Below, piece by piece: positions 11,634 to 26,064 of a stretch of 64,000 nt of DNA (its first letter is position 1; every line of letters starts with the position of its first letter). This DNA comes from an uncultured Alphaproteobacteria bacterium (GTDB lineage Bacteria; Pseudomonadota; Alphaproteobacteria; CAVTAV01). The DNA is taken from contig CAWGFE010000002.1 in the NCBI GenBank assembly GCA_963821875.1, positions 3,014,021 to 3,078,020 on the forward strand, in the 5' to 3' direction. A program made the position numbers and the translations under genes. Below the pieces are notes generated by a model. That model did no database searches and was not told where the DNA came from. It saw nothing but the letters and a program-made list of their open reading frames with translations.

Positions 11634-12338
11634 ATGGACGCCACCAAGCCAGCGATCGAGATTGAAAGATTGGAGTTCCAGTGGCCTGGAGGCGCTCCTT
11701 TAATTGCGATCGACAATCTGAGGGTAGATCGCGGTGAGCGCGTATTTCTGAAAGGGCCAAGCGGCAGCGGGAAGAGCACGTTGCTCGAACTCATAGCCGG
11801 AATCGTGAATCTCAAGACCGGCTCTATTCGTGTCAATGGCGCCACAATTAGCAAGCTCCGCCCCAGCGAGCGCGATCGTTTTCGAAGCAATCACATTGGC
11901 TTCATCTTCCAGCTCTTCAATCTCATCCCCTATTTGACGGTTCGGTCGAACGTTCTTCTGCCGTTGCATTTCTCGCCCGAGAGGCGGGAACGATTGAATG
12001 ACGTGGAGCTGGACGACGAGGTCGTACGTCTTCTGACAGCACTTGGTCTTGCGGGCGGCAATCTGCTGGAGCGTTTAACCACACAACTATCCATCGGACA
12101 GCAGCAACGTGTCGCCGCAGCACGAGCCCTGATCGGACGCCCCGATATCGTAATCGCGGATGAACCGACGTCGTCCCTCGACGCCGATACACGGGCCGGA
12201 TTCCTCCGGTTGTTAATGGCGGAATGCAGGACGCTGGGGACGACGCTCGTCTTCGTCAGCCACAACTCCTCACTGGAGACCTTCTTCGATCGCACATTAT
12301 CGATGAGCGATCTAATGCCAAACGCTCCGGCTCAATAG
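11634..12338 (+). CDS. ABC transporter ATP-binding protein (FtsE/LolD-like)
   Basis: Walker A GPSGSGKST, signature LSIGQQQR and Walker B IVIADEPTSSLD. Start taken at MDATKPAIEIERL. Confidence 0.85.
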   Translation: MDATKPAIEIERLEFQWPGGAPLIAIDNLRVDRGERVFLKGPSGSGKSTLLELIAGIVNLKTGSIRVNGATISKLRPSERDRFRSNHIGFIFQLFNLIPYLTVRSNVLLPLHFSPERRERLNDVELDDEVVRLLTALGLAGGNLLERLTTQLSIGQQQRVAAARALIGRPDIVIADEPTSSLDADTRAGFLRLLMAECRTLGTTLVFVSHNSSLETFFDRTLSMSDLMPNAPAQ

Positions 12339-12350
12339 CTGGGAACGACC

Positions 12351-13614
12351 ATGATCATCTGGAATTTGGCGCTAAAGAGCTTGTGGAACCGCAGAACGAC
12401 TGCTGCTCTGATGGTGCTGGCAATCTCGATCAGCGTCGCCCTGCTGCTCAGCGTGCAGATGTTGCGCACCTCGGCAAAACAGGGTTTTACCAACACGATC
12501 TCGGGAACCGACCTGATCGTCGGAGCCCGCACCGGTCCGATAAATCTCCTCCTTTCTTCCGTGTTTCGGATCGGCAACGCAACGACGAATGTAAGTTGGA
12601 AAACTTATCAGAAGATCGCCCATCATCCCGACGTGGCCTGGACAATTCCAATTTCCCTCGGCAACTCACATCGCGGTTTTCGGGTCCTTGGGACCGATGC
12701 GGACTACTTTCGGCACTACCATTTTGCCGGCGACCAATCCCTGCATCTTGTCGCCGGTCGCGAATTCAAGAACTTGTTCGAGGCCGTATTGGGAGCGGAC
12801 GTCGCTCGAAAGCTGCACTACAAGATTGGCGACTCCATAATCCTCGCGCACGGGGTCGGCGAGGTCAGCTTTGAGAAACATAAAAATCATCCATTTCGGG
12901 TCGTGGGCATCCTGGCCAAAACGGGCACACCGGTCGACCGGACGGTCCATGTCGGTTTGACGTCGATCACAGCTATCCATGTCGATTGGCGGACGGGAAC
13001 GCTGGCGCCGAAAAATGCGCGGGCAAGCACGGAAGCTCTGAAGCACATGGACCTGACTCCGAAGGACCTGACCGCCTTCCTCGTCGGAATGCGGTCGAAG
13101 CCTCTGGCTCTCAGGATGCAACGCGCCGTCAACGTGTATAAAGGGGAGCCCCTGCTTGCCATTATTCCGGGCGTCGCGCTCAACCAGTTATGGAGTCTGG
13201 TCGGTGTGGCCGACACGGCCTTGATGATCGTTGCCGCTTTCGTCGTCGTCGCCAGTCTGCTTGGAATGCTTACGTCGATCCTCACAGAGTCTGAATGAGC
13301 GACGGCGCGAGATGGCGATTCTGCGATCGGTCGGCGCTCGCCCGAGGCATATATTGGGGCTGATGGTAATCGAAGCGGGCCTATTGGCGGCGCTCGGCGT
13401 GATCTTTGGGACGATCTGGGCGTATCTATTGCTATTCTTGGGACGCCCAATTCTCCAACAGAAGTTCGGTGTATTCATTGAAATGAATATTCCGTCGTCC
13501 TACGAACTCTCTATTCTCGCTTTGATCGTATTGTCGGCTTTGATTATAGGATTCCTGCCGGCCTTCCGCGCTTATCGGAATACGCTCAGTGACGGCCTTC
13601 AAATACGTGTCTGA
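12351..13614 (+). pseudogene. FtsX-family ABC permease, interrupted by a single-base frameshift near 13285-13290
   Basis: N-terminal 315-aa ORF (12351..13298, frame 0) and a C-terminal ORF (13231..13614, frame +1) containing the conserved FtsX ERRREMAILRSVGA block. The frames join as ...ILT / SLNERRRE. Confidence 0.65.
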
Positions 13615-13625
13615 CGGAGGTTCAA

Positions 13626-14172
13626 ATGCATGCCGTTCACAAGAGGCTCCTGTTCGCGGCAACACTAATGGCAGTTGTCAGTCTGCCCCCAACGCCCAAC
13701 GGCGCCGCAGCGAAAGAGGATACAAAGATACAGAACTCTCAGCTGGGAGACCCTATTGCCGGTAGCCGAGAGAAAGAATTTCAACCCGAACCCGCCCCCG
13801 CCAGTGCATAGCTACCTCGGCGAGGGAAGCATGCCGGCCCTTCAGTCAGGTTCGTACACGCCTAATCCGGATCTCGACGGCAAGCTTGTTAAGATCCCTG
13901 GCTTCGTCGTCCCGTTGGACACAGACAAGAAAGGCGGGCTCGTCGACTTCCTTCTCGTGCCCTATTTCGGAGCGTGCATTCACGTTCCTCCACCGCCACC
14001 GAACCAAATTGTCTACGTGAAGATGAAGAAGTCCGTTCCGCTTAGTTCAATGCAGGATGCACAGTGGGTTATCGGAACGCTACACGCATCGATCAAGAAG
14101 TCGGATTTGGGTGCTTCGGCCTATTTGCTGGACGGGACTTCACTGCAACCGTATCAGTACTCGGATCAGTGA
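13626..14172 (+). CDS. DUF3299 periplasmic protein (possibly frameshifted between the signal peptide and the domain)
   Basis: The DUF3299 body (LVPYFGACIHVPPPPPNQIV) is in frame +1 from a TTG at 13675. The only signal peptide (MHAVHKRLLFAATLMAVVSLPP) is in frame 0 from 13626 and terminates at 13811. DUF3299 is commonly linked to FtsEX-like ABC pairs. Confidence 0.5.
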
Positions 14173-14289: not shown

Positions 14290-15279
14290 TCAGTGAATAC
14301 CCATAGGACATGCTGCTAACGCGACGCCGGATCTCCCGCACTGCCGAGTTGCTCTGGGAGCCTCGCCGAAAGTCTTGCGATAGGACCTCGAGAAGTGAGC
14401 CGCATCCTTGAACCCGCATTGTAGCGCGATTTCTGTGATCGAACTGCTGCGCGTACGGGGATCGACCAATAGCTCCCTTGCTCGATCTAGACGTTGTCGC
14501 CAGATCAATGCCGCTGGCGTCAGACCGTCACCTGCGGAAATCCTGTATAACTGTCGAAGCGAAACGTCGAAATAGTCGGCGATGGTTTTCGGCGTCAGCT
14601 CGTCGCTATCGATCTGCGCGTTTATGTAGTCAGTTATTTCTTGTACATCAAGCAACGGACGAGAGGTGGCCATCCCTCTGGCGACGGGGCACTTAGCTCC
14701 CAGCGCCCGAGCCAGCAGTTGCAGCGTGATTTCCATCGAGTCAAGACTGTCGAGCGTGGGCCCGTGCCGAACGAGCGACGCCAAAGTATCTGACAGGAGC
14801 GCTCCCGCACCGCTGTTTCCCTTGATCAAAGGGACCATAGGAATCGAGTTGACATCGAGATATTGTTGTACCGTCTCAGCGGGAAGATGGAACGAGAACT
14901 GGTGGAAGTCCGGCCCGACCTCAAATACAGACTGATATCTGGAATCGATGAGCGTACAGTCTCCGGGTCTCAGATAGGTTTCCTTGCCGCGCTGCCGCAT
15001 GATTGCGGCCCCTTTTGCCTGGAAGATCAGGAAGTAGCGATCTCCCGGGTAATATTCGTCTCTCTTTCGATCCTTGATGACGCGACCATTCGAAAGACGA
15101 ATGTCGGCAACCTTCAAAGTGCCGATCGTCCGGGTGTTGATGCTGCCTTTGAAATCCCACCATCGATCGCAGACCACACGATAGGCTCCGCACACGCGCC
15201 CCATCGCACGATTGCAGCTCTCCAGGTCCGACAATGTCCGGGCGGAACTTGCAGCCATCTGTCCCCCTCCGCTCCCCAT
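14290..15279 (-). CDS. AraC-family transcriptional regulator
   Basis: C-terminal AraC HTH (ITEIALQCGFKDAAHFSRSYRKTFG) with an N-terminal sensing domain. Confidence 0.8.
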   Translation of the reverse strand: MGSGGGQMAASSARTLSDLESCNRAMGRVCGAYRVVCDRWWDFKGSINTRTIGTLKVADIRLSNGRVIKDRKRDEYYPGDRYFLIFQAKGAAIMRQRGKETYLRPGDCTLIDSRYQSVFEVGPDFHQFSFHLPAETVQQYLDVNSIPMVPLIKGNSGAGALLSDTLASLVRHGPTLDSLDSMEITLQLLARALGAKCPVARGMATSRPLLDVQEITDYINAQIDSDELTPKTIADYFDVSLRQLYRISAGDGLTPAALIWRQRLDRARELLVDPRTRSSSITEIALQCGFKDAAHFSRSYRKTFGEAPRATRQCGRSGVALAACPMGIH

Positions 15280-16100
15280 GCGTCGACAAAATCGAGGTAT
15301 CTTTTCAAGATCACCACACGACTATTAAAGTCGACTTTGGTCGAGTATAAGTTCCGCCATATTATTGTCAATCAGGTTGCGAACAGGGCACCGGTTTGCC
15401 ACATCACACTCACTTCAAAAATCGAGACAATGATCACAGATGATATAAAATCGGAGGCTAGCGACGACGTAAATTTCTGGGAGGGCGCCCGTGACGCTGC
15501 TTAGTACGCGCAAAAGCACGTTGAGAAAGAACGGCATCGCCCGCAGAAGGCGTCTTCTGGATGCGGCACGCCTCCTCCTCCAGGACCACGATCTCGACGA
15601 GATCAGTCTGGGAGATGTGGCGGCAGAAGCTAAGGTGCCAAAAGGTTCGGCCTACCACTTCTACTCCGACATCAAGGATCTCTATGTCAGCCTCCTTGCC
15701 GATGTTGAGAAAGAACTGCAGAAGATCTTGCAAGCGCCTATCCGTCGCCGGGTAGACAGCTGGGCGAACGTGGTCGAGATCCTGAATGAGCGCGGCATGA
15801 AGTATTACGCGAAGCACGCTGCCTCGATGAAGCTGCAGGTCGGGGCGAAGACGCCTCCGGACTTGAAACTCCACGACCGGAAGAGCGACGTCGATCTGGG
15901 AAAGATCTATGAGCAACAGATCAACGTGTTCTTCGAACTGCCCGATATTGATAACCGCTCGACGATCTTCTTCAGAGCAATCGAGATTGCGGACCTGATG
16001 TTCTCCCTGTCGGTCCTCGAACATGGATACATCACGCCCGAGATGGAGGAAGAAGCCAAACGCGCGATGTGTGGCTATCTCAGCTGCTACATTCCAAAAG
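15029..16100. repeat. direct repeat copy A (AraC 5' part, divergent promoter, TetR)
   Basis: Near-identical to 19296..20015 apart from an internal ~355-bp segment (15390-15745) that copy B lacks. Confidence 0.85.
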
Positions 16101-16141
16101 AACTGCCGCGACGGAAGCGGAATGGATCAAAGAAGGCTTAG
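15491..16141 (+). CDS. TetR-family transcriptional regulator
   Basis: N-terminal TetR HTH (EISLGDVAAEAKVPKGSAYHFYSDIKDLY). 216 aa. Confidence 0.8.
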   Translation: MTLLSTRKSTLRKNGIARRRRLLDAARLLLQDHDLDEISLGDVAAEAKVPKGSAYHFYSDIKDLYVSLLADVEKELQKILQAPIRRRVDSWANVVEILNERGMKYYAKHAASMKLQVGAKTPPDLKLHDRKSDVDLGKIYEQQINVFFELPDIDNRSTIFFRAIEIADLMFSLSVLEHGYITPEMEEEAKRAMCGYLSCYIPKELPRRKRNGSKKA

Positions 16142-16601
16142 GCCGTATGGGGCACGCAGCCTGATGCCTGGCATAGGATACGCGATGCCGCGAGATCGGC
16201 ATTACTCAGACGAGCAATTTGCCGCTCCCGGCACCGGACCAAGAACTTACCGCCCTCGCTGGAGGCCAGGAAGCGATCGACGTGGCCATCCCGAGCCAGG
16301 ACACGGTTATCGAGGCCTGCACCGTTCGGCGAAAGGCAATCTTCGCATTCCGTCATATTGATCGATAATGGGTTTGGTCGCGGCTCGAAGCGTAACCTCG
16401 CCGTTGGAGTCGATACGTGCACTCTGCAAAGAGCCGTCGCTACAGAGCATGAAGAAGTCGTGCGCGCTGGGCGGATAACCCAGGGCGTAACCCGGCGTAT
16501 CGACTTCCCTTGACCGTGGTGGCCGGCGATCTGAGAAAAGCGTTCAGATGCTTTTCGTCCCCCTTGAAGTTCGCCGATTTCATGGCCGCGGAATACGGGT
16601 A

Positions 16602-16802
16602 TTAGGTCGAGCCTACAACGCGCACTATGACGCCCGCCAAATTCAGCCCAATCCCAAGCTTGCGGCCATGTTCGATGACATGACACAGCGCGCATTGTTT
16701 GAACAGATTGGCGCCGCGCGCTGCATCCCCTTCAGCCGTATGAACAATTCCCGGCATCAAGAGAAATGCTGCTGATATCGCAACAATACTTCTCTGCAAC
16801 AT
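16602..16802 (-). pseudogene. class I cytochrome c N-terminal fragment
   Basis: Signal peptide plus GDAARGANLFKQCALCHVIE (CxxCH), but the ORF stops after 66 aa. There is no Met-ligand region and no continuation in another frame. Confidence 0.45.
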
Positions 16803-16817
16803 TTCGCGTCTTTTCGG

Positions 16818-19190
16818 TCACCAATTAACGCGCGCCGTCACACCATAGGTGGCTGGAGGGGCATAGTAGGAAGTCGTGCCCAGAACGCCGAGGTTGAGCG
16901 TATAAGCCCTGTATGCTTTATCGAAGATGTTCTTACCCCACAGGGTCAACTGGAACTTTTCGCTCGGATCCGTCCAGCTTACCGACGCGTTGGTTACATT
17001 GTAGGAGGGCTGCAAGGACGAGCGGCCGTTAGTGACTTCAAGATACTGATCATCGTACCAAACACCGTCGACTTGCAGGGCCGCGGTGCCCACGGGTAAA
17101 TCAAAGTCGTAACGGACCAGGTAATTGACGCTGAAGCTCGGAGCATTGGGAAGCTTTGCGTCGGTAATGAATTTCTGCGGAAAGGTGCACTGGAATGCAC
17201 CGCCGATATTGGTGCAGTATTGCGCGTCCGGCGCGCCGGGGAACAGCTCCGGTGCGATTTGTTGGCCAACGCCCAAGATGCGCTTGACCTTCGACGTCTC
17301 CCACGTGCTTCCCAACCTGATGTAGAATCGGTCGATCGGCTCCCACGTCGCTTCCAGTTCTGCCCCAGTCGCCAGCGCGTCACTGTTACTGACTTGCGGG
17401 GTGCCGTTAAACACCGCAAATGCTTGATAATTGTTGTAGATATAATGATACGCAGTCCCGTTGACCCGCAAACGCTGGTTGGGAGTGGTGTATTTGATGC
17501 CCAGTTCAAAGCTATGCAGCGTCTCCGGACCGTGGCGGAACGTGGTCGGCGTGATATTCGGACTGAGCGTCCAGTTACCCCCCTTGATTCCACGATTATA
17601 GGAGGCAAACAAAAGCATGCCGGTCTGTGGTTTCCAATTCAGCGAAACACGCGCTGCGTAGTCGCCATAGTGGATTCGATTCACCCCGGGATTGCTCGCC
17701 GCCAGAATCTTGTCGGTTGTAAGCACCGCATCAGGAAACCCGGAGTCGACCAGCAGCGAGGTGTAGTCGATGGACTTGTTGTCCTTTGAGTAGCGCAGGC
17801 CGCCGATGACGGAGAACTTGTCGGTGAAGTGATATTCCGCCTGCCCAAATAAGGACCAATTCTTCGAGTTCAGTTTGTAGGGCTCTGTCACCGATGGGTC
17901 ATTGGCGGCGCCGTTGATATCGAAAGCCGCTCCGAGCACCGGTGCTCCCTGTGTCACGTTTTGACCGTCGATGGTCATGTCCAGATAATAGGCGCCGACT
18001 TGCCAATCCACACGATCCGTGTTGCCCGATAACCGCGTTTCCTGAGAGAACTGATCGTAATTGACGTCAGTGCGGAAGATGATGACCGTGATCGGTATCG
18101 CGTCTCCATCCTCCTGATAGTGCTTGTTAAAGTGCGTATAATTGGTGATCGAGGTCAGTTTCACATTGCCAAGCTGCCAAGTAATGTCGGCTTGGCCGAT
18201 GTTGACCCGACGGTCTAGGAAGCCGGGCGTGTTCGAGAAGTTCTGAAAAGGAGATGCTTTTGCACCGGTAATGCCATTGATGACGCCGCCGGAGCCGTCG
18301 GTGAGACCCGCGGGATCGACGTGACAGAAACCGTTCGGAAGAAAATCGCAGTTGTCGAACACATAGCCACCAGTTGGGACATTGTGATCGCGCGAATATT
18401 TGTACCATAGCTCAACGAGGAGGTCGGGCGTCACATCTATCTGTGTAGTGGCGCGAAGTGCATAGGCGTTCTGCCCACCCAGGTTCTGGCCATCTCCAAA
18501 CAAGCCATTGGCGGGATCGGCGTCTGCCGACTTGATATAACTTCCACCGAGTTCCCTCCGCGTCGCAATGCGGAATCGCCAACCGTCAGTGATCCCTCCG
18601 CCGACCGCTCCTTCCAGTGAGCGCGAATTGAACCGTCCATAGCTCCCTTGGACATAACCGTTAAAATCGGAGTCAGTCGCGCCATTGCTTATATAATGGA
18701 CTAGGCCGCCGGTCGCATTTCGGCCAAACAAAGTCCCTTGTGGGCCGCGCAGCACTTCAACCCGTTCAAGGTCAAACAGTTGCCCGCTTATGCCGTTCAT
18801 TGAGCCCATATACGCGTTATCCATATACACGGCGACGGGCGCTTCGAGGTTGTCCTGGAAATTGTTTTGTGAGATGCCCCGCAAATTGAAGATCGTAACA
18901 TTTGGCGACCAGGCATTGATGTGCATACCAGGAATCTGCTGGGTGATACCTGTTGTCTCGTTGATGCCGAGCTTGCTGAGCTGATTGCCCGTTAGTGCGG
19001 ACACGGAAACCGGCACGTCTTGAAGATTCTGACTGCGTTTCTGTGCCGTTACGACGACGACGTCGAGCAAAGACCCTTTGTTCGCAGCGTCCTCGCTAGT
19101 TTGGGCTATCGCCGCGCTGGCGGCTCCAACCGCGGCAATCGCTGAAGTGCACAACAAAATCGTTCGTACCAGCGTGGAATTGCGGAACAT
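16818..19190 (-). CDS. TonB-dependent receptor
   Basis: 790 aa with a signal peptide, a plug domain (DVVVVTAQKRSQNLQDVPVSVSAL), and many beta-strands ending ...TARVNW. Confidence 0.9.
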   Translation of the reverse strand: MFRNSTLVRTILLCTSAIAAVGAASAAIAQTSEDAANKGSLLDVVVVTAQKRSQNLQDVPVSVSALTGNQLSKLGINETTGITQQIPGMHINAWSPNVTIFNLRGISQNNFQDNLEAPVAVYMDNAYMGSMNGISGQLFDLERVEVLRGPQGTLFGRNATGGLVHYISNGATDSDFNGYVQGSYGRFNSRSLEGAVGGGITDGWRFRIATRRELGGSYIKSADADPANGLFGDGQNLGGQNAYALRATTQIDVTPDLLVELWYKYSRDHNVPTGGYVFDNCDFLPNGFCHVDPAGLTDGSGGVINGITGAKASPFQNFSNTPGFLDRRVNIGQADITWQLGNVKLTSITNYTHFNKHYQEDGDAIPITVIIFRTDVNYDQFSQETRLSGNTDRVDWQVGAYYLDMTIDGQNVTQGAPVLGAAFDINGAANDPSVTEPYKLNSKNWSLFGQAEYHFTDKFSVIGGLRYSKDNKSIDYTSLLVDSGFPDAVLTTDKILAASNPGVNRIHYGDYAARVSLNWKPQTGMLLFASYNRGIKGGNWTLSPNITPTTFRHGPETLHSFELGIKYTTPNQRLRVNGTAYHYIYNNYQAFAVFNGTPQVSNSDALATGAELEATWEPIDRFYIRLGSTWETSKVKRILGVGQQIAPELFPGAPDAQYCTNIGGAFQCTFPQKFITDAKLPNAPSFSVNYLVRYDFDLPVGTAALQVDGVWYDDQYLEVTNGRSSLQPSYNVTNASVSWTDPSEKFQLTLWGKNIFDKAYRAYTLNLGVLGTTSYYAPPATYGVTARVNW

Positions 19191-19199
19191 GACTTTCCC

Positions 19200-19547
19200 C
19201 TAAATTGTCAACGATTTCCGGTGCGCAAATTGTTCTACGCTTGCCCCGCCATGCACCAAGGCGACGCGGAGTTCATCGAAGCCGTACTCAGGGCAAAAGA
19301 AGTAGCGATCTCCCGGGTAATATTCGTCTCTCTTTCGATCCTTGATGACGCGACCATTCGAAAGACGAATGTCGGCAACCTTCAAAGTGCCGATCGTCCG
19401 GGTGTTGATGCTGCCTTTGAAATCCCACCATCGATCGCAGACCACACGATAGGCTCCGCACACGCGCCCCATCGCACGATTACAGCTTTCCAGGTCCGAC
19501 AATGTCCGGGCGGAACTTGCAGCCATCCGTCCCCCTCCGCTCCCCAT
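19200..19547 (-). pseudogene. AraC regulator N-terminal duplicate fragment
   Basis: The first ~83 aa match the 14290..15279 product almost exactly, then diverge at the repeat boundary. No HTH domain. Confidence 0.6.
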
Positions 19548-20015
19548 GCGTCGACAAAATCGAGGTATCTTTTCAAGACCACCACACGACTATTAAAGTC
19601 GACTTTGGTCGAGTATAAGTTCCGCCATATTATTGTCAATCAGGTTGCGGTGTAGGAGTGCCGGGTAGACAGCTGGTCTAACGTGGTCGAGATCTTGAAT
19701 GAGCGCGGCATGAAGTATCACGCCAAGCACACTGCCTCGATGAAGCTGCAGATCGGGGCGAAGACGCCTCCGGACTTGAAACTCCACGACCGGAAGAGCG
19801 ACGTCGATCTGGGAAAGATCTACGATCAACAGATCAACGTGTTTTTCGAACTGCCCGATATTGATAACCGCTCGACGATCTTCTTCAGAGCGATCGAGAT
19901 CGCGGATCTGATGTTCTCACTCTCCGTGCTCGAGCACGGCCGTATCACCAACGACATGGAGGAAGAGGCCAAACGCGCTATGTGCGCTTATCTCGAATGC
20001 TATATTCCAAAAAAT
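19296..20015. repeat. direct repeat copy B
   Basis: See copy A. The two copies bracket 16100-19296, which holds the TonB-dependent receptor and the cytochrome c remnant. Confidence 0.85.
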
Positions 20016-20030
20016 TGGCACCGAGACTCA
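19683..20030 (+). pseudogene. TetR regulator C-terminal duplicate fragment
   Basis: Matches residues ~95-205 of the 15491..16141 product. It lacks the start and the HTH, and after ~20015 its frame runs antisense into the SDR gene. Confidence 0.55.
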
Positions 20031-20056
20031 TGTCGTCGACTGGTGAATAGCCGCTC

Positions 20057-20866
20057 CTACGGCGAAACACCGCATTCCGGCAATAACGCTCCCCCGTCAA
20101 CGATCAATGTCTGGCCGGTGACGTATGACGCGGCATCGGATGCGAGGAAAGCCATAGCGAACGCTATGTCTTTGGGACTCCCCAATCTTTTCATGGGGAT
20201 TCGGCTCGCCAGTTTTTCCGCATGCGCCCGATCACCCAAATTGTCGGCCGCGGAGGTTTCGATCATTCCGGGTTCAACGCCATTCACCGTCACATTATAT
20301 TTCGCCAGTTCGAGCGCCGCCGCGCGAATGAACCCGTTTATCCCAGCCTTCGACGCGGCATAATGCGCGAGGCCCGGATAAGCCACCCTTGCTCCCGTGA
20401 CGGACGATGTCACTAACACGCGCCCTTTCCCTTGACGCTTGAAGCAGGGTAACGCGGCCTGAGTAAGCCAAAATGCCGCCTTGAGATTCACAGAAAGAGT
20501 CCGAGCAAGTATCCCGTCGTCAATGTCCTCAAATGCCGTTAACGGAAAATACGCTGCATTGTGAACAACGACATCGATTCTACCAAACCGGCCATACACG
20601 TCATCAACCAGAGCAGACACGCGCCGTTCGTCCGACACATCGATCTCGAAAAAATGCGCCCGGCCTTTCGCCGAACGAATCTCTTCTGCCGCTGACAACC
20701 CGCTTTCAACCGCCAAATCGGCAATAACGACCTCGGCTTCATGTGCTGCAAATACGCCCGCAATTGCCTTGCCGATCCCCTGCCCTGCGCCGGTTACGAC
20801 ACATACTTGACCGGCAAAATCGAACGGAAGTCGATAATCCCCCGTAGGTGACACACTTTCCGACAT
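20057..20866 (-). CDS. SDR-family oxidoreductase
   Basis: TGAGQGIG Rossmann motif, NAA, and YxxxK (YAASK). The start MSESV sits 4 nt after the upstream SDR stop; the track ORF extends to 20935. Confidence 0.8.
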   Translation of the reverse strand: MSESVSPTGDYRLPFDFAGQVCVVTGAGQGIGKAIAGVFAAHEAEVVIADLAVESGLSAAEEIRSAKGRAHFFEIDVSDERRVSALVDDVYGRFGRIDVVVHNAAYFPLTAFEDIDDGILARTLSVNLKAAFWLTQAALPCFKRQGKGRVLVTSSVTGARVAYPGLAHYAASKAGINGFIRAAALELAKYNVTVNGVEPGMIETSAADNLGDRAHAEKLASRIPMKRLGSPKDIAFAMAFLASDAASYVTGQTLIVDGGALLPECGVSP

Positions 20867-20870
20867 GAGC

Positions 20871-21653
20871 TCAGATCGCCGAGAAAGCAAGCGTCGGAAC
20901 ATCCACGATCGTCGAGCCCGCGTCCGCGACCACAACGGCGCCTGTAACGATTGACGCGTCCTCGGAAATCAAAAACCGGCAGACCGCCGCTATCTCCTCG
21001 CTAGACGCAGCACGGCGCAATGGAACGTCACGCGTCACTAACTCGTAGGCCTGTTCCAGGGAGATGTTGTGATTCTGCATCAGCGGCTCCATCTCTTCGT
21101 CAGCCATCGGCGTCTTCACCCAGCCCGGACAAACGGCATTGACGCGTACACCTGACGGACCAAAATCGCGCGCGAGAGAACGGGTAAGTCCGATCAAAGC
21201 ATGCTTTGCGGTCGTATAACCACAAACCTCAGGGCCTGCTCCGAGTGACGCGATCGAGGCTACTAAAACGGCTGCTCCCCGTCTTTCTATCAGACAAGGC
21301 AGTGTCTCCCGAGCAGCAACGAATGCCGTGTTGAGATTTGCGTCCAGAGAAAGACGCCACTCCGCATCTCCCGTCGCCAACGCGTCGCCAAGACCATGGC
21401 CGCCTGCGCTAGCAATCAGAAAATCGATGCCGCCAAAACGGTCCTTGAGCTGCGATACTGCCTTCTTCATCTCCGACGTATCGGACGCATCGCCAACCAA
21501 TACTGCGCCATCAATATCTTTTGCCACATTCTCGAGCGGTTGTCTTCGTCGGCCCATTACCGCAACCTTGACACCTTCCGAGGCCAGGCGACGGGCACAT
21601 GCTGCACCGATTCCGGTCCCACCGCCGGTTATCAACGCGACCTTGCCCTTCAT
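20871..21653 (-). CDS. SDR-family oxidoreductase
   Basis: TGGGTGIG, SAGG and YTTAK motifs. 260 aa. Confidence 0.85.
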   Translation of the reverse strand: MKGKVALITGGGTGIGAACARRLASEGVKVAVMGRRRQPLENVAKDIDGAVLVGDASDTSEMKKAVSQLKDRFGGIDFLIASAGGHGLGDALATGDAEWRLSLDANLNTAFVAARETLPCLIERRGAAVLVASIASLGAGPEVCGYTTAKHALIGLTRSLARDFGPSGVRVNAVCPGWVKTPMADEEMEPLMQNHNISLEQAYELVTRDVPLRRAASSEEIAAVCRFLISEDASIVTGAVVVADAGSTIVDVPTLAFSAI

Positions 21654-21740
21654 AGCCGGAACGTTCCGCAGGCTAGGTCAGACGTGCGTAGCACCAGCTT
21701 GACTGACAGGTCCCCGGACCGAGCGGAAGGTCTTTCATCG

Positions 21741-22586
21741 TCATTCATGGCGCTCGCCTCCCCGTTCGTGCGACGTAACATTCAGAATCCGCGCCTTCGC
21801 GCCTATTGGAAAATTGGTTACACGTCCAAAATCGTCGCCTTCGTAACCAAACAGTTTCCCGGTCGTCTTCATCGCATCCAAACTCAGCACGACAACGCCT
21901 AGTGTCGGCACAATCTTCTCTCGCCAGACGAACAAGTACATCTTGTTGCCAAGCTTGTAGTAATGGCACCTGTCCGTGTCAGCGAGCCCCCTCTCTGCAC
22001 CGGACAAGCAATGCCACGTATAGAAAGAATCATTTAGGTAGATGTGTTCGTATCGCTCGGTCGGACTGTAAATATACTCGATACGGTGACCGACAAGATC
22101 CACAGTCGTTTTATGACGCGGTGTGATGTCTGTAAGCGCTTCGTCGACAGCTCCATGAACGAAGTCCACGGCGACGCCCGTCAGTTCCTTCCCGCTACGC
22201 CTCCGTTCGGGCAGGGACATCAACGCCTCCGTCTCGCTCGGCAAACGACCGATTACGGACGTGAATATCTTCTGCTCCAGGTCTAGGAACAGACTGATCG
22301 TCATCGTTCTTTCTGTTTGGCTGACGAAGTCTATAAAGTACTTGCCGGGCTGCATCGTCGTGGCGCGGTAGCTTTCCGGCGGTTTTCTCTCACCGAGACC
22401 CGATCGAACCAGGCGGTCTTCCGTTTCGAAGGCGAACCGCTCTATCGAGCTGTCGTCATAATGAAACTCGAAAGATCGACCGGCCAGGTCACTGCTCGGC
22501 GGCAAGAGGTTGACGTCTTTTTCAAAGGCCGCACCAAGTTCTCCAACGCCAATCCAGGGCGAATCACTAACCATACTCTTCCTCAA
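21741..22586 (-). CDS. MoaF-like/hypothetical protein
   Basis: 281-aa ORF with good coding character, upstream of the two SDR genes on the same strand. Similarity to MoaF is from memory only. Confidence 0.35.
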   Translation of the reverse strand: MRKSMVSDSPWIGVGELGAAFEKDVNLLPPSSDLAGRSFEFHYDDSSIERFAFETEDRLVRSGLGERKPPESYRATTMQPGKYFIDFVSQTERTMTISLFLDLEQKIFTSVIGRLPSETEALMSLPERRRSGKELTGVAVDFVHGAVDEALTDITPRHKTTVDLVGHRIEYIYSPTERYEHIYLNDSFYTWHCLSGAERGLADTDRCHYYKLGNKMYLFVWREKIVPTLGVVVLSLDAMKTTGKLFGYEGDDFGRVTNFPIGAKARILNVTSHERGGERHE

Positions 22587-23202
22587 TTTTCGACGCAGAC
22601 AGACGCACTGAACAATCTCGATGACTATACCACCGCTGGTTTAAGGCCGAGCAGGTCGGTGAAATCGAACGGACTGACCAGTGAAGGCCGCGACCAATGC
22701 TGGAGCACGTTTTGAAGTCTTTTTTTTGCGGCGATTAAGGCTTCGCTAAAGACGTCCCCTTTTACCGCGCCGCATTCATAACCGTGTTGACACCAAATGA
22801 ATGCCTTAGCTTAATCCAGCCATGAGCGTTTGGTCGGTCACCGTGAATGGTGGAATGACGATTTCTCCTGCTTGGCACAACTTTGGCACGACGCCACGCG
22901 CAGAAATTCTCATGAAATAGAACATGCGATCAGGGAACTTAAGCGGCCGCTGCCTTGCATTCTTGTTTGGCGCTGCCAAAAAATTGATCGGATTGGACAG
23001 GAAGAGGAGGAGGACGCAGGATTGCGGAGATTCAGTGCAAGGTTCACAAAGTCCCGCCACTTGGCAGCGATAGTCAAGAAAATGGCCATGCCGAACAAGA
23101 TCAGATCGGAAGCCGGCCCGTACCCTTAATCGACTGATAGGCCCTTAATCTTCAGGGTTATAACTACCAGTACAACAGCGCACCACCAGCAAGGACGCAA
23201 AC

Positions 23203-24552
23203 ATGAGCACCGACGCGGCAAATAAGGCAAGCAGTCACTTCTGGCACCCTATGCTGCATCCAAATGAAATGACGCGGCGCAGTCCGATCCGGATCGTTCG
23301 GGGCGACGGATGCTATGTTTACGACGACGAAGGAAAGAGGCTGGTCGACGGCGTGGCCGGTCTTTGGAACGTGAATGTTGGCCATAACCGCCCTGAAATG
23401 AAGCAGGCTATCGCCGAGCAGCTCGACAAGCTCGAATATTTTCAGCTGTTCGACGGCGTATCGCATCCGACCGCCGAGGAACTGGCTCAACGGGTCATAG
23501 AATTGTCGGACGAAGAGGACATGGGCCGCGTCCTGTTTAGTTCAGGAGGGTCGGATGCGGTCGAGACTGCGCTAAAGATCGCTCGTCAGTATTGGAAACT
23601 TGAAGGTCAACAGGACCGGACCAAGTTTATAGCCTTACGGCAAGGCTACCATGGCACGCATTTTGGTTCGGGATCCGTGAACGGCAATACGGCGTTCCGC
23701 CGTAACTATGAGCCCCTGCTGCCGGGATGCTTCCATGTCGAGACCCCTTGGCTCTATCGAAACCCGTTTACCGAAGACCCCGAAGAACTTGCCAAGATCT
23801 GCGCCGACCAGCTTGAGCGGGAGATAATCTTTCAGAGCCCGGACACGGTAGCGGCCTTCATTGCGGAACCCATACAGGGCGCCGGTGGCGTCATCGTCCC
23901 ACCGGCAAGCTATTGGCCTTTGGTTCGGAAGATCTGCGACAAATACGGAGTTTTGCTGATTTCCGACGAGGTTGTGACGGGATTTGGCCGTAGCGGTACG
24001 ATGTTCGGTTGTCGGGCATGGGGCGTCAAACCCGATATCATGTGCCTCGCGAAAGGCATTTCATCTGGCTACATTCCGTTGGGTGCCACGGTCGTCAACA
24101 AACGCATCGAAGACGCCTTCGCCAAAAACCAGGATTTCACAGGCGCAATCATGCACGGATACACCTATGCGGGCCATCCTGTTGCCTGCGCAGCCGCTCT
24201 TGCCTGCCTGAAGATAGTCGTCGACGAGGATCTGCCCGCCAACGCCGCAAAGCAAGGCGCTTACCTTTTAGAGCAACTCAAGCCCTTCGAACAACGATAC
24301 AAAACCGTCGGCGAAGTGCGCGGAAAGGGATTGATGATTGCGCTCGACCTGGTTCAGGACAAGATGACCCGGGAACCCATTGACCCCGAAGGCGGTTATG
24401 CCAACGAAGTCGCCGCCGCTGCAAGGGAGGCGGGCGCTCTGGTTCGACCGGTCGGCACGAAAATCATTCTGTCGCCGCCGCTCGTGTATCAAACCGAGCA
24501 TGTTGACGCTCTCGTCGCCGCATTGGATGCCGGCTTCAGAAAAGTCGACTAA
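23203..24552 (+). CDS. class III (omega) aminotransferase, amine:pyruvate type
   Basis: HFWHP...GLWNVNVGHNRPE, SGGSDAVE, DEVVTGFGRSG and a C-terminal LSPPL block. 449 aa. Confidence 0.9.
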   Translation: MSTDAANKASSHFWHPMLHPNEMTRRSPIRIVRGDGCYVYDDEGKRLVDGVAGLWNVNVGHNRPEMKQAIAEQLDKLEYFQLFDGVSHPTAEELAQRVIELSDEEDMGRVLFSSGGSDAVETALKIARQYWKLEGQQDRTKFIALRQGYHGTHFGSGSVNGNTAFRRNYEPLLPGCFHVETPWLYRNPFTEDPEELAKICADQLEREIIFQSPDTVAAFIAEPIQGAGGVIVPPASYWPLVRKICDKYGVLLISDEVVTGFGRSGTMFGCRAWGVKPDIMCLAKGISSGYIPLGATVVNKRIEDAFAKNQDFTGAIMHGYTYAGHPVACAAALACLKIVVDEDLPANAAKQGAYLLEQLKPFEQRYKTVGEVRGKGLMIALDLVQDKMTREPIDPEGGYANEVAAAAREAGALVRPVGTKIILSPPLVYQTEHVDALVAALDAGFRKVD

Positions 24553-24603
24553 GCACAGCCCAGCCTCAAGCGGCCGACAGCCAGTTTCGGGATCGCCCCA
24601 AAA

Positions 24604-26064
24604 ATGCTCGGTAAAAACGGAAAGACATCACGCCCAGAACACGGGGTCATAGGATTTCCCACGGCACTTGCCACTGCTGTCGGCCTAATCATGGCCAGCC
24701 CTGTGATCCTTACGGTCACCTCCGGATTTGGGACCGGTGGCAAAACCTTTGCAATCGCGATCGTAATCGCCTTCGTGATGATGCAGGCCCAAGCGATGTC
24801 TTTTGCCGAGGCGGCATCCATCTTGCCTACCACGGGCTCCGTCTATGACTACATCTCATGCGGCCTCGGACGCTTCTGCGCGATCGCGGGCACCATTTCG
24901 GCCTACGTGCTCGTCCATGTATTCGCGGGTACGGCAGAAACAATCCTCAGCGGCATCCTGGCGCTTGTCAATTTCGACACTCTCCACAACGCGCTGGAAA
25001 AGAGCGGGAGTTCCTGGCTGGTAGGTGTCGGGCTCGTTGTCCTGTTCGGATTCGTAAATGCATTCGGGATCAAGGTCTTCAGCAGGGTCGAGATCGTTCT
25101 GACGGCCGGCATGTGGACCACCTTGATGATCTTCGGCATCGTGGGCTTGCTATCGCCCCCCGTGGTCCACCTCCAGGGTTGGTTCGGGTCATCGGAGATT
25201 GGCACAGGCTTGCCCGCTACCCTGTCGCTCGTCGGTATGGCGATGTTCATGTTTGTCGGCTTCGAATTCGTGACGCCGCTTGCCGCAGAACTCAAGAATC
25301 CGGCGCGCCACATACCCAGGGCGATGACGATCGGGCTGTTTGCCGTGGCTGCTTGCATGTTGATCTATGGCAGCGCCATGCGTCATCAAGTCGAAAACGT
25401 TGCGGTTGGAAATGGATCCCATCTCCTGGACACCCCGATGGCGATTCCGACTTTCGCGATGCATGTCATGGGACCGGCCGGAAAAGTATGGCTTGGCATC
25501 GCTTTCCTGTTTGCCGGCGCCGCCACGATCAATACGTTGATGGCCGGTTTGCCGCGCATTATGTATGGCATGGCGATCGACGGATCCCTGCCCAAGATCT
25601 TTGCTTACCTGCATCCGAAGTATAAGACGCCAATCGTAGGAATTGCCGTTTCGGTCTTCATTCCGTGCTTCCACGCGTGGCTGATCAAAGGGGACATCGA
25701 CCGTCTCAACAACCTAGTGCTCGCCGCGGTCTGCGCCTGGGGCGTCGCCTATATCATGGTGAGTTTGTCGGTCATTTCGCTGAGGATCAGGCGTCCCGAT
25801 CTGCCGCGTCTTTATAAAACGCCACTCTTTCCTCTGCCCCAGATCATTTCGATTATCGGGATCGTGATTGCCATCTGGTACATCACGCCAATCGGAACAA
25901 GCGCCTGGCAGGTATACAAGTCGTTCGGCATCATGCTTCTGTTCACCCTCGCCTATGCATTTGTGTGGACGCGCTTTGTAAGACGTGTGCCCATGTTTGA
26001 GCCGGTGCCGGTCGAGAAAATTCTGGAAGAGGAGTTTGGCTCGGACGAAGGACAGCGCTTCTGA
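24604..26064 (+). CDS. APC-family amino acid/amine permease
   Basis: 486 aa with 12 predicted TM helices and APC-like motifs. Confidence 0.85.
   Translation: MLGKNGKTSRPEHGVIGFPTALATAVGLIMASPVILTVTSGFGTGGKTFAIAIVIAFVMMQAQAMSFAEAASILPTTGSVYDYISCGLGRFCAIAGTISAYVLVHVFAGTAETILSGILALVNFDTLHNALEKSGSSWLVGVGLVVLFGFVNAFGIKVFSRVEIVLTAGMWTTLMIFGIVGLLSPPVVHLQGWFGSSEIGTGLPATLSLVGMAMFMFVGFEFVTPLAAELKNPARHIPRAMTIGLFAVAACMLIYGSAMRHQVENVAVGNGSHLLDTPMAIPTFAMHVMGPAGKVWLGIAFLFAGAATINTLMAGLPRIMYGMAIDGSLPKIFAYLHPKYKTPIVGIAVSVFIPCFHAWLIKGDIDRLNNLVLAAVCAWGVAYIMVSLSVISLRIRRPDLPRLYKTPLFPLPQIISIIGIVIAIWYITPIGTSAWQVYKSFGIMLLFTLAYAFVWTRFVRRVPMFEPVPVEKILEEEFGSDEGQRF

Follow-up and report, generated by a model that had tools for sequence, protein, structure and literature searches.

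In the TetR/QacR paradigm a repressor gene is transcribed divergently from its target, and a palindromic operator overlaps the promoter. A comparable arrangement is found in a stretch of 64,000 nt from an uncultured Alphaproteobacteria bacterium (GCA_963821875.1, contig CAWGFE010000002.1, positions 3,014,021 to 3,078,020). This whole stretch is called the window here, and all coordinates refer to it unless a contig is named. A gene for a TetR-family regulator (TetR_A) lies divergent from a gene for an AraC-family regulator, and a near-consensus promoter carries overlapping palindromes just after its -10 element, ahead of the leader. The locus departs from the paradigm in that the presumed target is an AraC-family regulator and that the putative operator-promoter is present again before a gene for a TonB-dependent receptor.

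The regulator invites a second comparison, with the feaR-tynA-feaB system of Escherichia coli, where a FeaR-type AraC regulator is linked to aromatic-amine catabolism (mentioned in PMC4640556). The AraC protein of the window displays the same pair of domains (AraC_binding_2 and HTH_18) in an amine-related neighbourhood with MoaF, an aminotransferase, an amino-acid permease and relics of an amine dehydrogenase. No tynA or feaB orthologue was identified at this locus, and the likeness rests on family names. The relics recall mau/aau clusters, which are composed of heavy chain, MauE, MauD, light chain and cytochrome c. Here only fragments are left; they keep the order seen in the related contigs L006 and L008, but are permuted with respect to the receptor.

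In its overall form the locus resembles the products of Campbell-type insertion-duplication and of segmental duplications, with a left flank, a repeat, an inserted block, the repeat again and a right flank (L-H-X-H-R), each repeat being continuous with its own flank. Likewise, H is single-copy where X is absent and the state is reversible by recombination between the repeats, as in contig L001. It differs from such products in having no demonstrable circular donor or vector, in the ancient date of the event and in the partial decay of the second copy. Non-allelic gene conversion and concerted evolution have been described for bacterial paralogues such as omp2a and omp2b of Brucella (PMC7050475), and a general theory is available (PMC3924837). 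The locus shares with these a likeness within the genome that exceeds the likeness between orthologues, a sharp tract boundary and strain variants present in both copies. However, the acceptor is a pseudogene fragment with a promoter and not a second functional gene, and only one of the three lineages shows conversion.

Taken together, the data favour, with a probability of about 70%, an old insertion-duplication scar: a receptor and its operon would have been inserted beside the regulators, the duplicated regulator cassette would have decayed independently in each lineage, gene conversion would have acted between the copies, a promoter block would have been retained and one deletion variant (L001) would have arisen. 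The sequences themselves show the architecture, its age, the pattern of conversion, the deletion variant and the selective conservation of the promoter block; the activity of the promoter, the repressor involved and the original mechanism are inferred.

A first-pass annotation of the window had reported two repeat blocks, and both were confirmed by repeat search and pairwise alignment. Block R1 relates 15031-15381 (copy A) to 19299-19649 (copy B) over 351 bp with 4 mismatches (98.9% identity; longest exact run 183 bp), and extends over AraC codons 1-77, their 5' leader and the half of the intergenic region next to AraC. Block R2 relates 15747-16099 (copy A, TetR codons 86 to about 203) to 19660-20012 (copy B, + strand, a start-less C-terminal TetR pseudogene named TetR_B) over 353 bp at 89.8% identity. 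The identity along R2 is uneven, with 96% in 15747-15975 and 78% in 15976-16100. The description of the copies as near-identical is thus correct for R1 and not for R2. Both blocks are collinear and in direct orientation, forming one extended homology. Exact direct repeats of at least 20 bp were absent from the shuffled window, and the repeat search revealed no third copy of the cassette within the window. Between the blocks, copy B lacks ~352 bp (about 15395-15745), a loss that takes the half of the intergenic region nearest to TetR along with TetR codons 1-85 and agrees with the internal deletion of ~355 bp proposed earlier. The bases at the junction (19650-19659) are diverged, and the same junction occurs in L001 and in L044. 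What had been called a duplicated 5' half of AraC corresponds to codons 1-77 out of 322, about a quarter of the gene. As a separate feature, an imperfect inverted repeat of 21 nt (76% complementary, 98 nt apart) flanks the AraC start and promoter in copy A (15230-15250/15349-15369) and in copy B (19498-19518/19617-19637).

The same layout was found in other lineages. Contigs L005 and L042 represent one species, with a synonymous divergence (dS) to the window of about 1.2-1.35 and a receptor protein 88% identical to that of the window. Both show the order ABC-MacB-DUF3299-AraC-TetR-receptor-AraC'-TetR remnant-SDR-MoaF, where AraC' is a truncated AraC copy (aa 1-92 in this species). The cassette copies of L005 are 70-76% identical. 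The second copy of L042 is full length (1147 bp, aligned with window 14984-16119 at 70%) and its TetR is merely frameshifted; in L005 most of the copy-B TetR is deleted. Contig L043 (87.5% identical to the window) displays receptor-AraC'-TetR remnant-SDR292-SDR260-MoaF, and its copy B is 76% identical to the copies of the window and carries its own deletion of ~335 bp. Across these lineages the cassette copies are only 61-76% alike. Since the layout is common to lineages with dS above 1 to the window, the duplication is old. An additional ~560-bp deletion, which removes most of the copy-B TetR pseudogene, was noticed between L005 (4445-4600) and L042 (9007-9644), contigs that are 98-100% identical; this is a further deletion polymorphism of the scar, of independent origin.

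Distant genomes (L015, L016 and L045, with an AraC of about 49% amino acid identity) harbour a single cassette in the order MoaF-SDR260-SDR292-TetR<->AraC and no receptor, which is the receptor-less configuration for which a comparison with related genomes had been suggested. In the window the left copy runs on into the full AraC gene and the right copy into the SDR genes, giving the L-H-X-H-R form. This form, together with the TetR-SDR292 adjacency in the distant receptor-less genomes, supports the duplication-insertion scar proposed in the first-pass annotation.

The best-conserved part of the cassette across nine aligned A and B copies is a 54-bp promoter/operator block (15319-15372 in copy A), in which copies A and B of the window are 100% identical. 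In copy A the block contains the predicted AraC promoter at 15344-15371 (-; TTGACA, 16-nt spacer, TATACT; 11/12 consensus positions) and, immediately downstream of the -10 element, operator-like overlapping palindromes at 15319-15343 (CGACT..AGTCGACT..GGTCG). In copy B the promoter with the same elements and spacer is located at 19612-19639 (-), directed through AraC' into the receptor gene, and the palindromes (CGACT..AGTCGACT..GGTCG) at 19587-19611. A consensus scan ranked both promoter copies as the two best sigma-70-like sites in 14900-20200. The palindromes are conserved in 9/9 aligned copies, the 25-mer occurs only twice in the window, and no further operator copies were found elsewhere in it. 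No terminator-like site was predicted between promoter copy B and the receptor. The conservation is selective: the B copies of L042 and L043 retain 97% and 100% of the columns invariant in the four functional A copies within the 54-bp block, against 76-79% in the AraC' coding part (Fisher p = 0.002 and 0.0005). Exact runs of 20-34 bp are present inside the block.

From these features, promoter copy B would transcribe AraC' and the receptor, and formerly the receptor together with a dehydrogenase operon. The receptor would thereby share a putative operator with the AraC gene, and the repressor is probably TetR_A; the protein binding the palindromes could instead be AraC or another factor. The duplication of a divergent promoter, as announced in the first-pass annotation, is thus correct for the AraC-side promoter/operator upstream of the receptor, while the TetR-side half is deleted in copy B. 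A second motif, AAATCGAGACAATGA, was observed at 15418-15432 in this TetR-proximal half. It is conserved in all A copies and in the B copies of L005 and L042, deleted in copy B of the window and truncated in that of L043, and could serve as promoter of TetR or as another operator.

We tentatively propose, at somewhat less than even odds, that the block is a maintained cis-regulatory duplicate. The AraC promoter-operator would have been copied ahead of the incoming operon and would have wired it into the TetR/AraC circuit in one step; the 54-bp module would then have been selectively kept over a divergence of dS >1, with conversion keeping the promoters identical in one lineage. Several points weigh against this proposal and against the scar as a whole. 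About 105 bp of native sequence remain upstream of the receptor, and a promoter overlooked by the consensus scan could reside there. Copy B of the window is devoid of the distal intergenic half including AAATCGAGACAATGA, and its regulation may differ from that of copy A. Short conversion patches, and not selection acting in place, could explain why the block persists in the other lineages. The receptor itself seems dispensable in this species, being interrupted in L003 and deleted in L001, which weakens a current adaptive role. The original mechanism is not recoverable, as the same layout would result from a tandem duplication with a subsequent deletion. Finally, a single simple crossover leaves one site of the L001 contig (15214) unexplained, as it is of B-type while lying left of A-type sites.

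The strongest of the other explanations, unlikely in our view and still deserving attention, considers copy B as wholly non-functional debris: the receptor would use its own promoter, and the 54-bp block would be kept by chance or by short conversion patches. It fits with the clear pseudogene character of AraC' and TetR_B and with the loss of the receptor in some strains. The native upstream leader of the receptor (19191-19298, -), which ends at the AraC' junction and is homologous to L005 5107-5224, is about 80% conserved with the latter over its ~105 bp, and the exact runs of 20-34 bp could seed conversion. On the other side, the block holds 97-100% of the A-invariant positions in two independent lineages with flanks at 61-79%, a near-consensus promoter is aimed at the receptor with no predicted terminator between them, and the consensus scan showed no promoter-like site in 19191-19298.

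The high identity of R1 was examined by comparing copies within and between genomes. For the AraC 5' segment, copies A and B of the window are 99% identical, against 69% for those of L042 and 76% for the B copies of the window and L043. Copy B of the window is closer to the A copy of L005 (76%) than to the B copy of L005 (63%). The copy identity within the genome thus reaches 99%, compared with 76-80% between orthologues. Two sites, 15793 and 15964, differ between two strains and agree between the copies within each strain (only these two such sites were found). From about 16006 onward copy-specific states are fixed, with a sharp boundary near 15995-16005. This pattern argues strongly for gene conversion, and not a young duplication, as the source of the 99% identity in R1. 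By the same sequence comparisons, R1 appears to have been converted most recently, and conversion in the early part of R2 would be older or patchy. With copy A as donor, conversion would have raised the identity of the copies to 99% in R1 and to 96% over the first 230 bp of R2.

The receptor is absent from contig L001 (from ERZ27257104), which is 98.4% identical to the window on both flanks. It shows the order MacB-DUF3299-full AraC-one R1-the same ~352-bp deletion-TetR remnant-SDR. The TetR remnant of L001 is the copy-B allele of L044, including a shared frameshift at 15839. Within its R1, single-nucleotide polymorphisms (SNPs) at 15030, 15220 and 15260 are of A-type, and the sequence is of B-type from 15382 on. 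The contig passes through R1 unbroken and has a private SNP inside R1 at 15267. This corresponds to the expected product of a crossover between both R1 copies within 15261-15381, a chimeric contig being only a slight alternative. Such a crossover removes 4.27 kb with the intact TetR gene, the dehydrogenase relics, the receptor and AraC'. The near-identical repeats of 351 bp would have served as substrate for homologous recombination in this strain, in line with the earlier suggestion that the repeats can excise the receptor.

L001 bears directly on a very improbable alternative, according to which the receptor arrived in this strain by a recent duplication-insertion and L001 preserves the ancestral locus without the insert. 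The 99% identity of the R1 copies and a receptor-less relative at 98.4% would agree with it. Against it, the layout is common to L005/L042 and L043, where the copies are 61-76% alike and dS to the window exceeds 1, and the right-hand part of R2 is only 78% identical. Because L001 carries the copy-B TetR deletion and the L044 copy-B allele, it appears to descend from an occupied locus and reads as a derived deletion, not as the empty-site configuration. A recent date does not hold either, as the event predates the lineage splits and the high identity reflects gene conversion.

Even less probable is a reading of the receptor segment as a mobile element or genomic island, inserted by a transposase or integrase and ending in the repeats. 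Direct repeats do bracket a cargo gene, and a receptor-less variant exists in L001. However, the repeats are ordinary host regulator genes and not element ends, every occurrence found sits at the same chromosomal locus, and the GC content is flat across the region. Precomputed Pfam calls for the called genes in the flanking ~10 kb to each side include no transposase, no integrase and no tRNA gene.

An assembly artefact, which the first-pass annotation had named as a concern, can be dismissed as extremely improbable: repeats of 350 bp can mislead assemblers, and two single-base insertions compared with L003 break reading frames of the window and hint at residual consensus errors, but the differences between the copies (352-bp deletion, R2 at 90%) are not of the kind that collapse or mis-joining creates, other species have orthologous structures, and each junction is reproduced by four other assemblies from at least three samples. 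These are L003 (a 608-kb ENA contig, 99.88% identical over 20.6 kb, with the same structure), L044 (a JGI contig, 98.5%, spanning receptor, AraC', TetR remnant, SDR292 and SDR260, i.e. all of copy B and both of its flanks), L049 (from the same sample as L044, spanning TetR_A, the spacer and the 3' end of the receptor gene) and L004 (crossing the receptor/AraC' junction). These four independent metagenome assemblies of the same species contradict a mis-assembly. The two insertions are extra A bases at 13286 and 13734 relative to L003; they break up two genes, MacB/FtsX (12351-13614) and DUF3299 (13626-14172), and may be real frameshifts or long-read consensus errors.

For the old insertion-duplication scar, the following sequence of events can be proposed. 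The ancestor would have had the order DUF3299-AraC<->TetR-SDR292-SDR260-MoaF. A block X, with a TonB-dependent receptor gene followed by a cytochrome c/amine-dehydrogenase operon on the same strand, would have been inserted beside the regulators. Simultaneously H, a segment of 1.15 kb from AraC codons 1 to about 95 over the intergenic region to the end of TetR, would have been duplicated, yielding L-H-X-H-R. A single crossover of a circular H-X molecule would be the simplest route to this form, if an unproven one. The redundant right-hand copy would then have decayed separately in each lineage, TetR_B being frameshifted in L042 and deleted in various ways in L005, L043 and the window. AraC' would have lost residues that are invariant in the AraC family, and the dehydrogenase genes would have been reduced to relics in the species of the window. 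A simple tandem duplication was considered and rejected, as the sequence following copy B (SDR292) is not a repeat of the one following copy A. Two types of TetR 3' end (donor and recipient) had also been considered from the identities in the right-hand part of R2, and were dropped because the pattern was not clean once L046 was added.

The nature of the inserted block was deduced from the spacer between TetR_A and the receptor. Using tblastn with proteins of L006 and L008, relics of a mau/aau-like amine-dehydrogenase operon were detected at 16186-16802 (-), downstream of the receptor. They comprise a cytochrome c relic (aa 1-102, 16494-16802, -), a heavy chain relic (aa 184-232, 16364-16507, -) and a relic of orf168 (aa 52-114, 16186-16374, -), in an order that matches L006 and L008. 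The receptor and cytochrome c remnant of the first-pass annotation are therefore present in the spacer region, but the list was incomplete, as heavy chain and orf168 relics are also there. The receptor orthologues of L006 and L008 are 71-74% identical to the window receptor, and both contigs show the order cytochrome c, amine-dehydrogenase heavy chain (Me-amine-dh_H), MauE, redoxin, light chain (Me-amine-dh_L), orf168, TetR, receptor, SDR. Contig L046 (82% identical to the window) has an intact light chain (MADH_L) and orf168, both convergent with the TetR-AraC pair. Because relics are left in the window and intact genes lie beside TetR in L046, the insert most likely consisted of the receptor with the whole amine-dehydrogenase operon, which has since decayed here. 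L046 also harbours, between orf168 and TetR, a 384-aa gene (1003-2157, -) that is absent from the window; by eye only, it resembles a cobalamin-independent methionine-synthase-like protein.

The full-length, FeaR-like AraC regulator is encoded at 14290-15258 (-), and Pfam assigned AraC_binding_2 (PF14525, 8.6e-20) and HTH_18 (PF12833, 2.9e-19) to it. Its start was set at the second Met, following the protein P0001, which is 100% identical over 322 aa; an in-frame ATG is also found at 15279. JGI labels homologues as 'positive regulator of tynA and feaB', and the best match in the genome collection (63%) is in a metagenome-assembled genome. TetR_A (15491-16141, +, 216 aa) displays TetR_N and TetR_C_22 domains, its N-terminal helix-turn-helix scoring E = 4.5e-7 with PF00440 (30 bits; cut-off 24), and the exact protein is encoded on L003. 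The receptor (16818-19190, -) is intact and full length with 790 aa, with Plug (PF07715, 9.2e-15) and barrel (PF00593, 3.5e-29) domains. Its best named matches are from Sphingorhabdus and Novosphingobium (67-68%), and the best ones in the plasmid database reach only about 70%, to Sphingobium receptor genes. On the left, DUF3299 and a MacB/FtsX-type ABC system were identified by Pfam. On the right, SDR292, SDR260 and MoaF (20057-22586, -; Pfam) have the same order as in L015, L016 and L045, reflecting the ancestral adjacency to TetR. Beyond this block the neighbourhood also includes the aminotransferase and amino-acid permease genes (23054-26064). In L002 (34-190) and L009 (2029-5568), TetR is directly followed by the aminotransferase and the amino-acid permease, and by this comparison the SDR-SDR-MoaF block is itself a variable insert in this regulon.

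Two open reading frames (ORFs) of copy B read clearly as pseudogenes, and annotators should be warned of them. The AraC' ORF (19200-19526, -) encodes 108 aa, AraC residues 1-77 followed by 31 unrelated ones; its stop codon lies 9 nt ahead of the receptor ATG, and the protein is not conserved in the B copies of L005, L042 and L043. AraC' as a functional truncated protein was considered and rejected: the family-invariant residues G24, Y26, W33, W34 and D63 are lost in the B copies of L005 and L042, where the nonsynonymous divergence (dN) is 0.35 against 0.08-0.14 for functional copies, and the B copy of L043 has a 7-nt gap. The second ORF is TetR_B. A 226-codon frame (19683-20363, +), which begins within the remnant of TetR_B and continues antisense into SDR292, is accidental and not a gene, though gene callers annotate it (217 aa in L003), and a look-up of the 217-aa TetR_B ORF gave no match.

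Between species the receptor is under strong purifying selection (dN/dS 0.06 with the L005 orthologue, at 88% protein identity). In L003 a CGA-to-TGA change at position 12188 of the contig (window 17678) introduces the stop R505*, and the receptor may be decaying in the species of the window. It may have become dispensable now that the dehydrogenase genes are gone.

None of the processes described here is new; the value of the locus is that of a clean, testable and well-documented example of known ones. Within one species it illustrates conversion between a gene and a pseudogene fragment, the repeat-mediated loss of a cargo together with the only intact repressor, and the stepwise decay of that cargo. 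If the incoming operon was indeed placed under the copied AraC promoter-operator, the locus would be a naturally replicated example of regulon growth, in three lineages and several strains. An inserted operon would have gained an existing promoter-operator through the very duplication that inserted it, and only that element would later have been preserved. In one lineage, where conversion keeps the two promoters identical, it would be a regulatory element and not a gene that undergoes concerted evolution.

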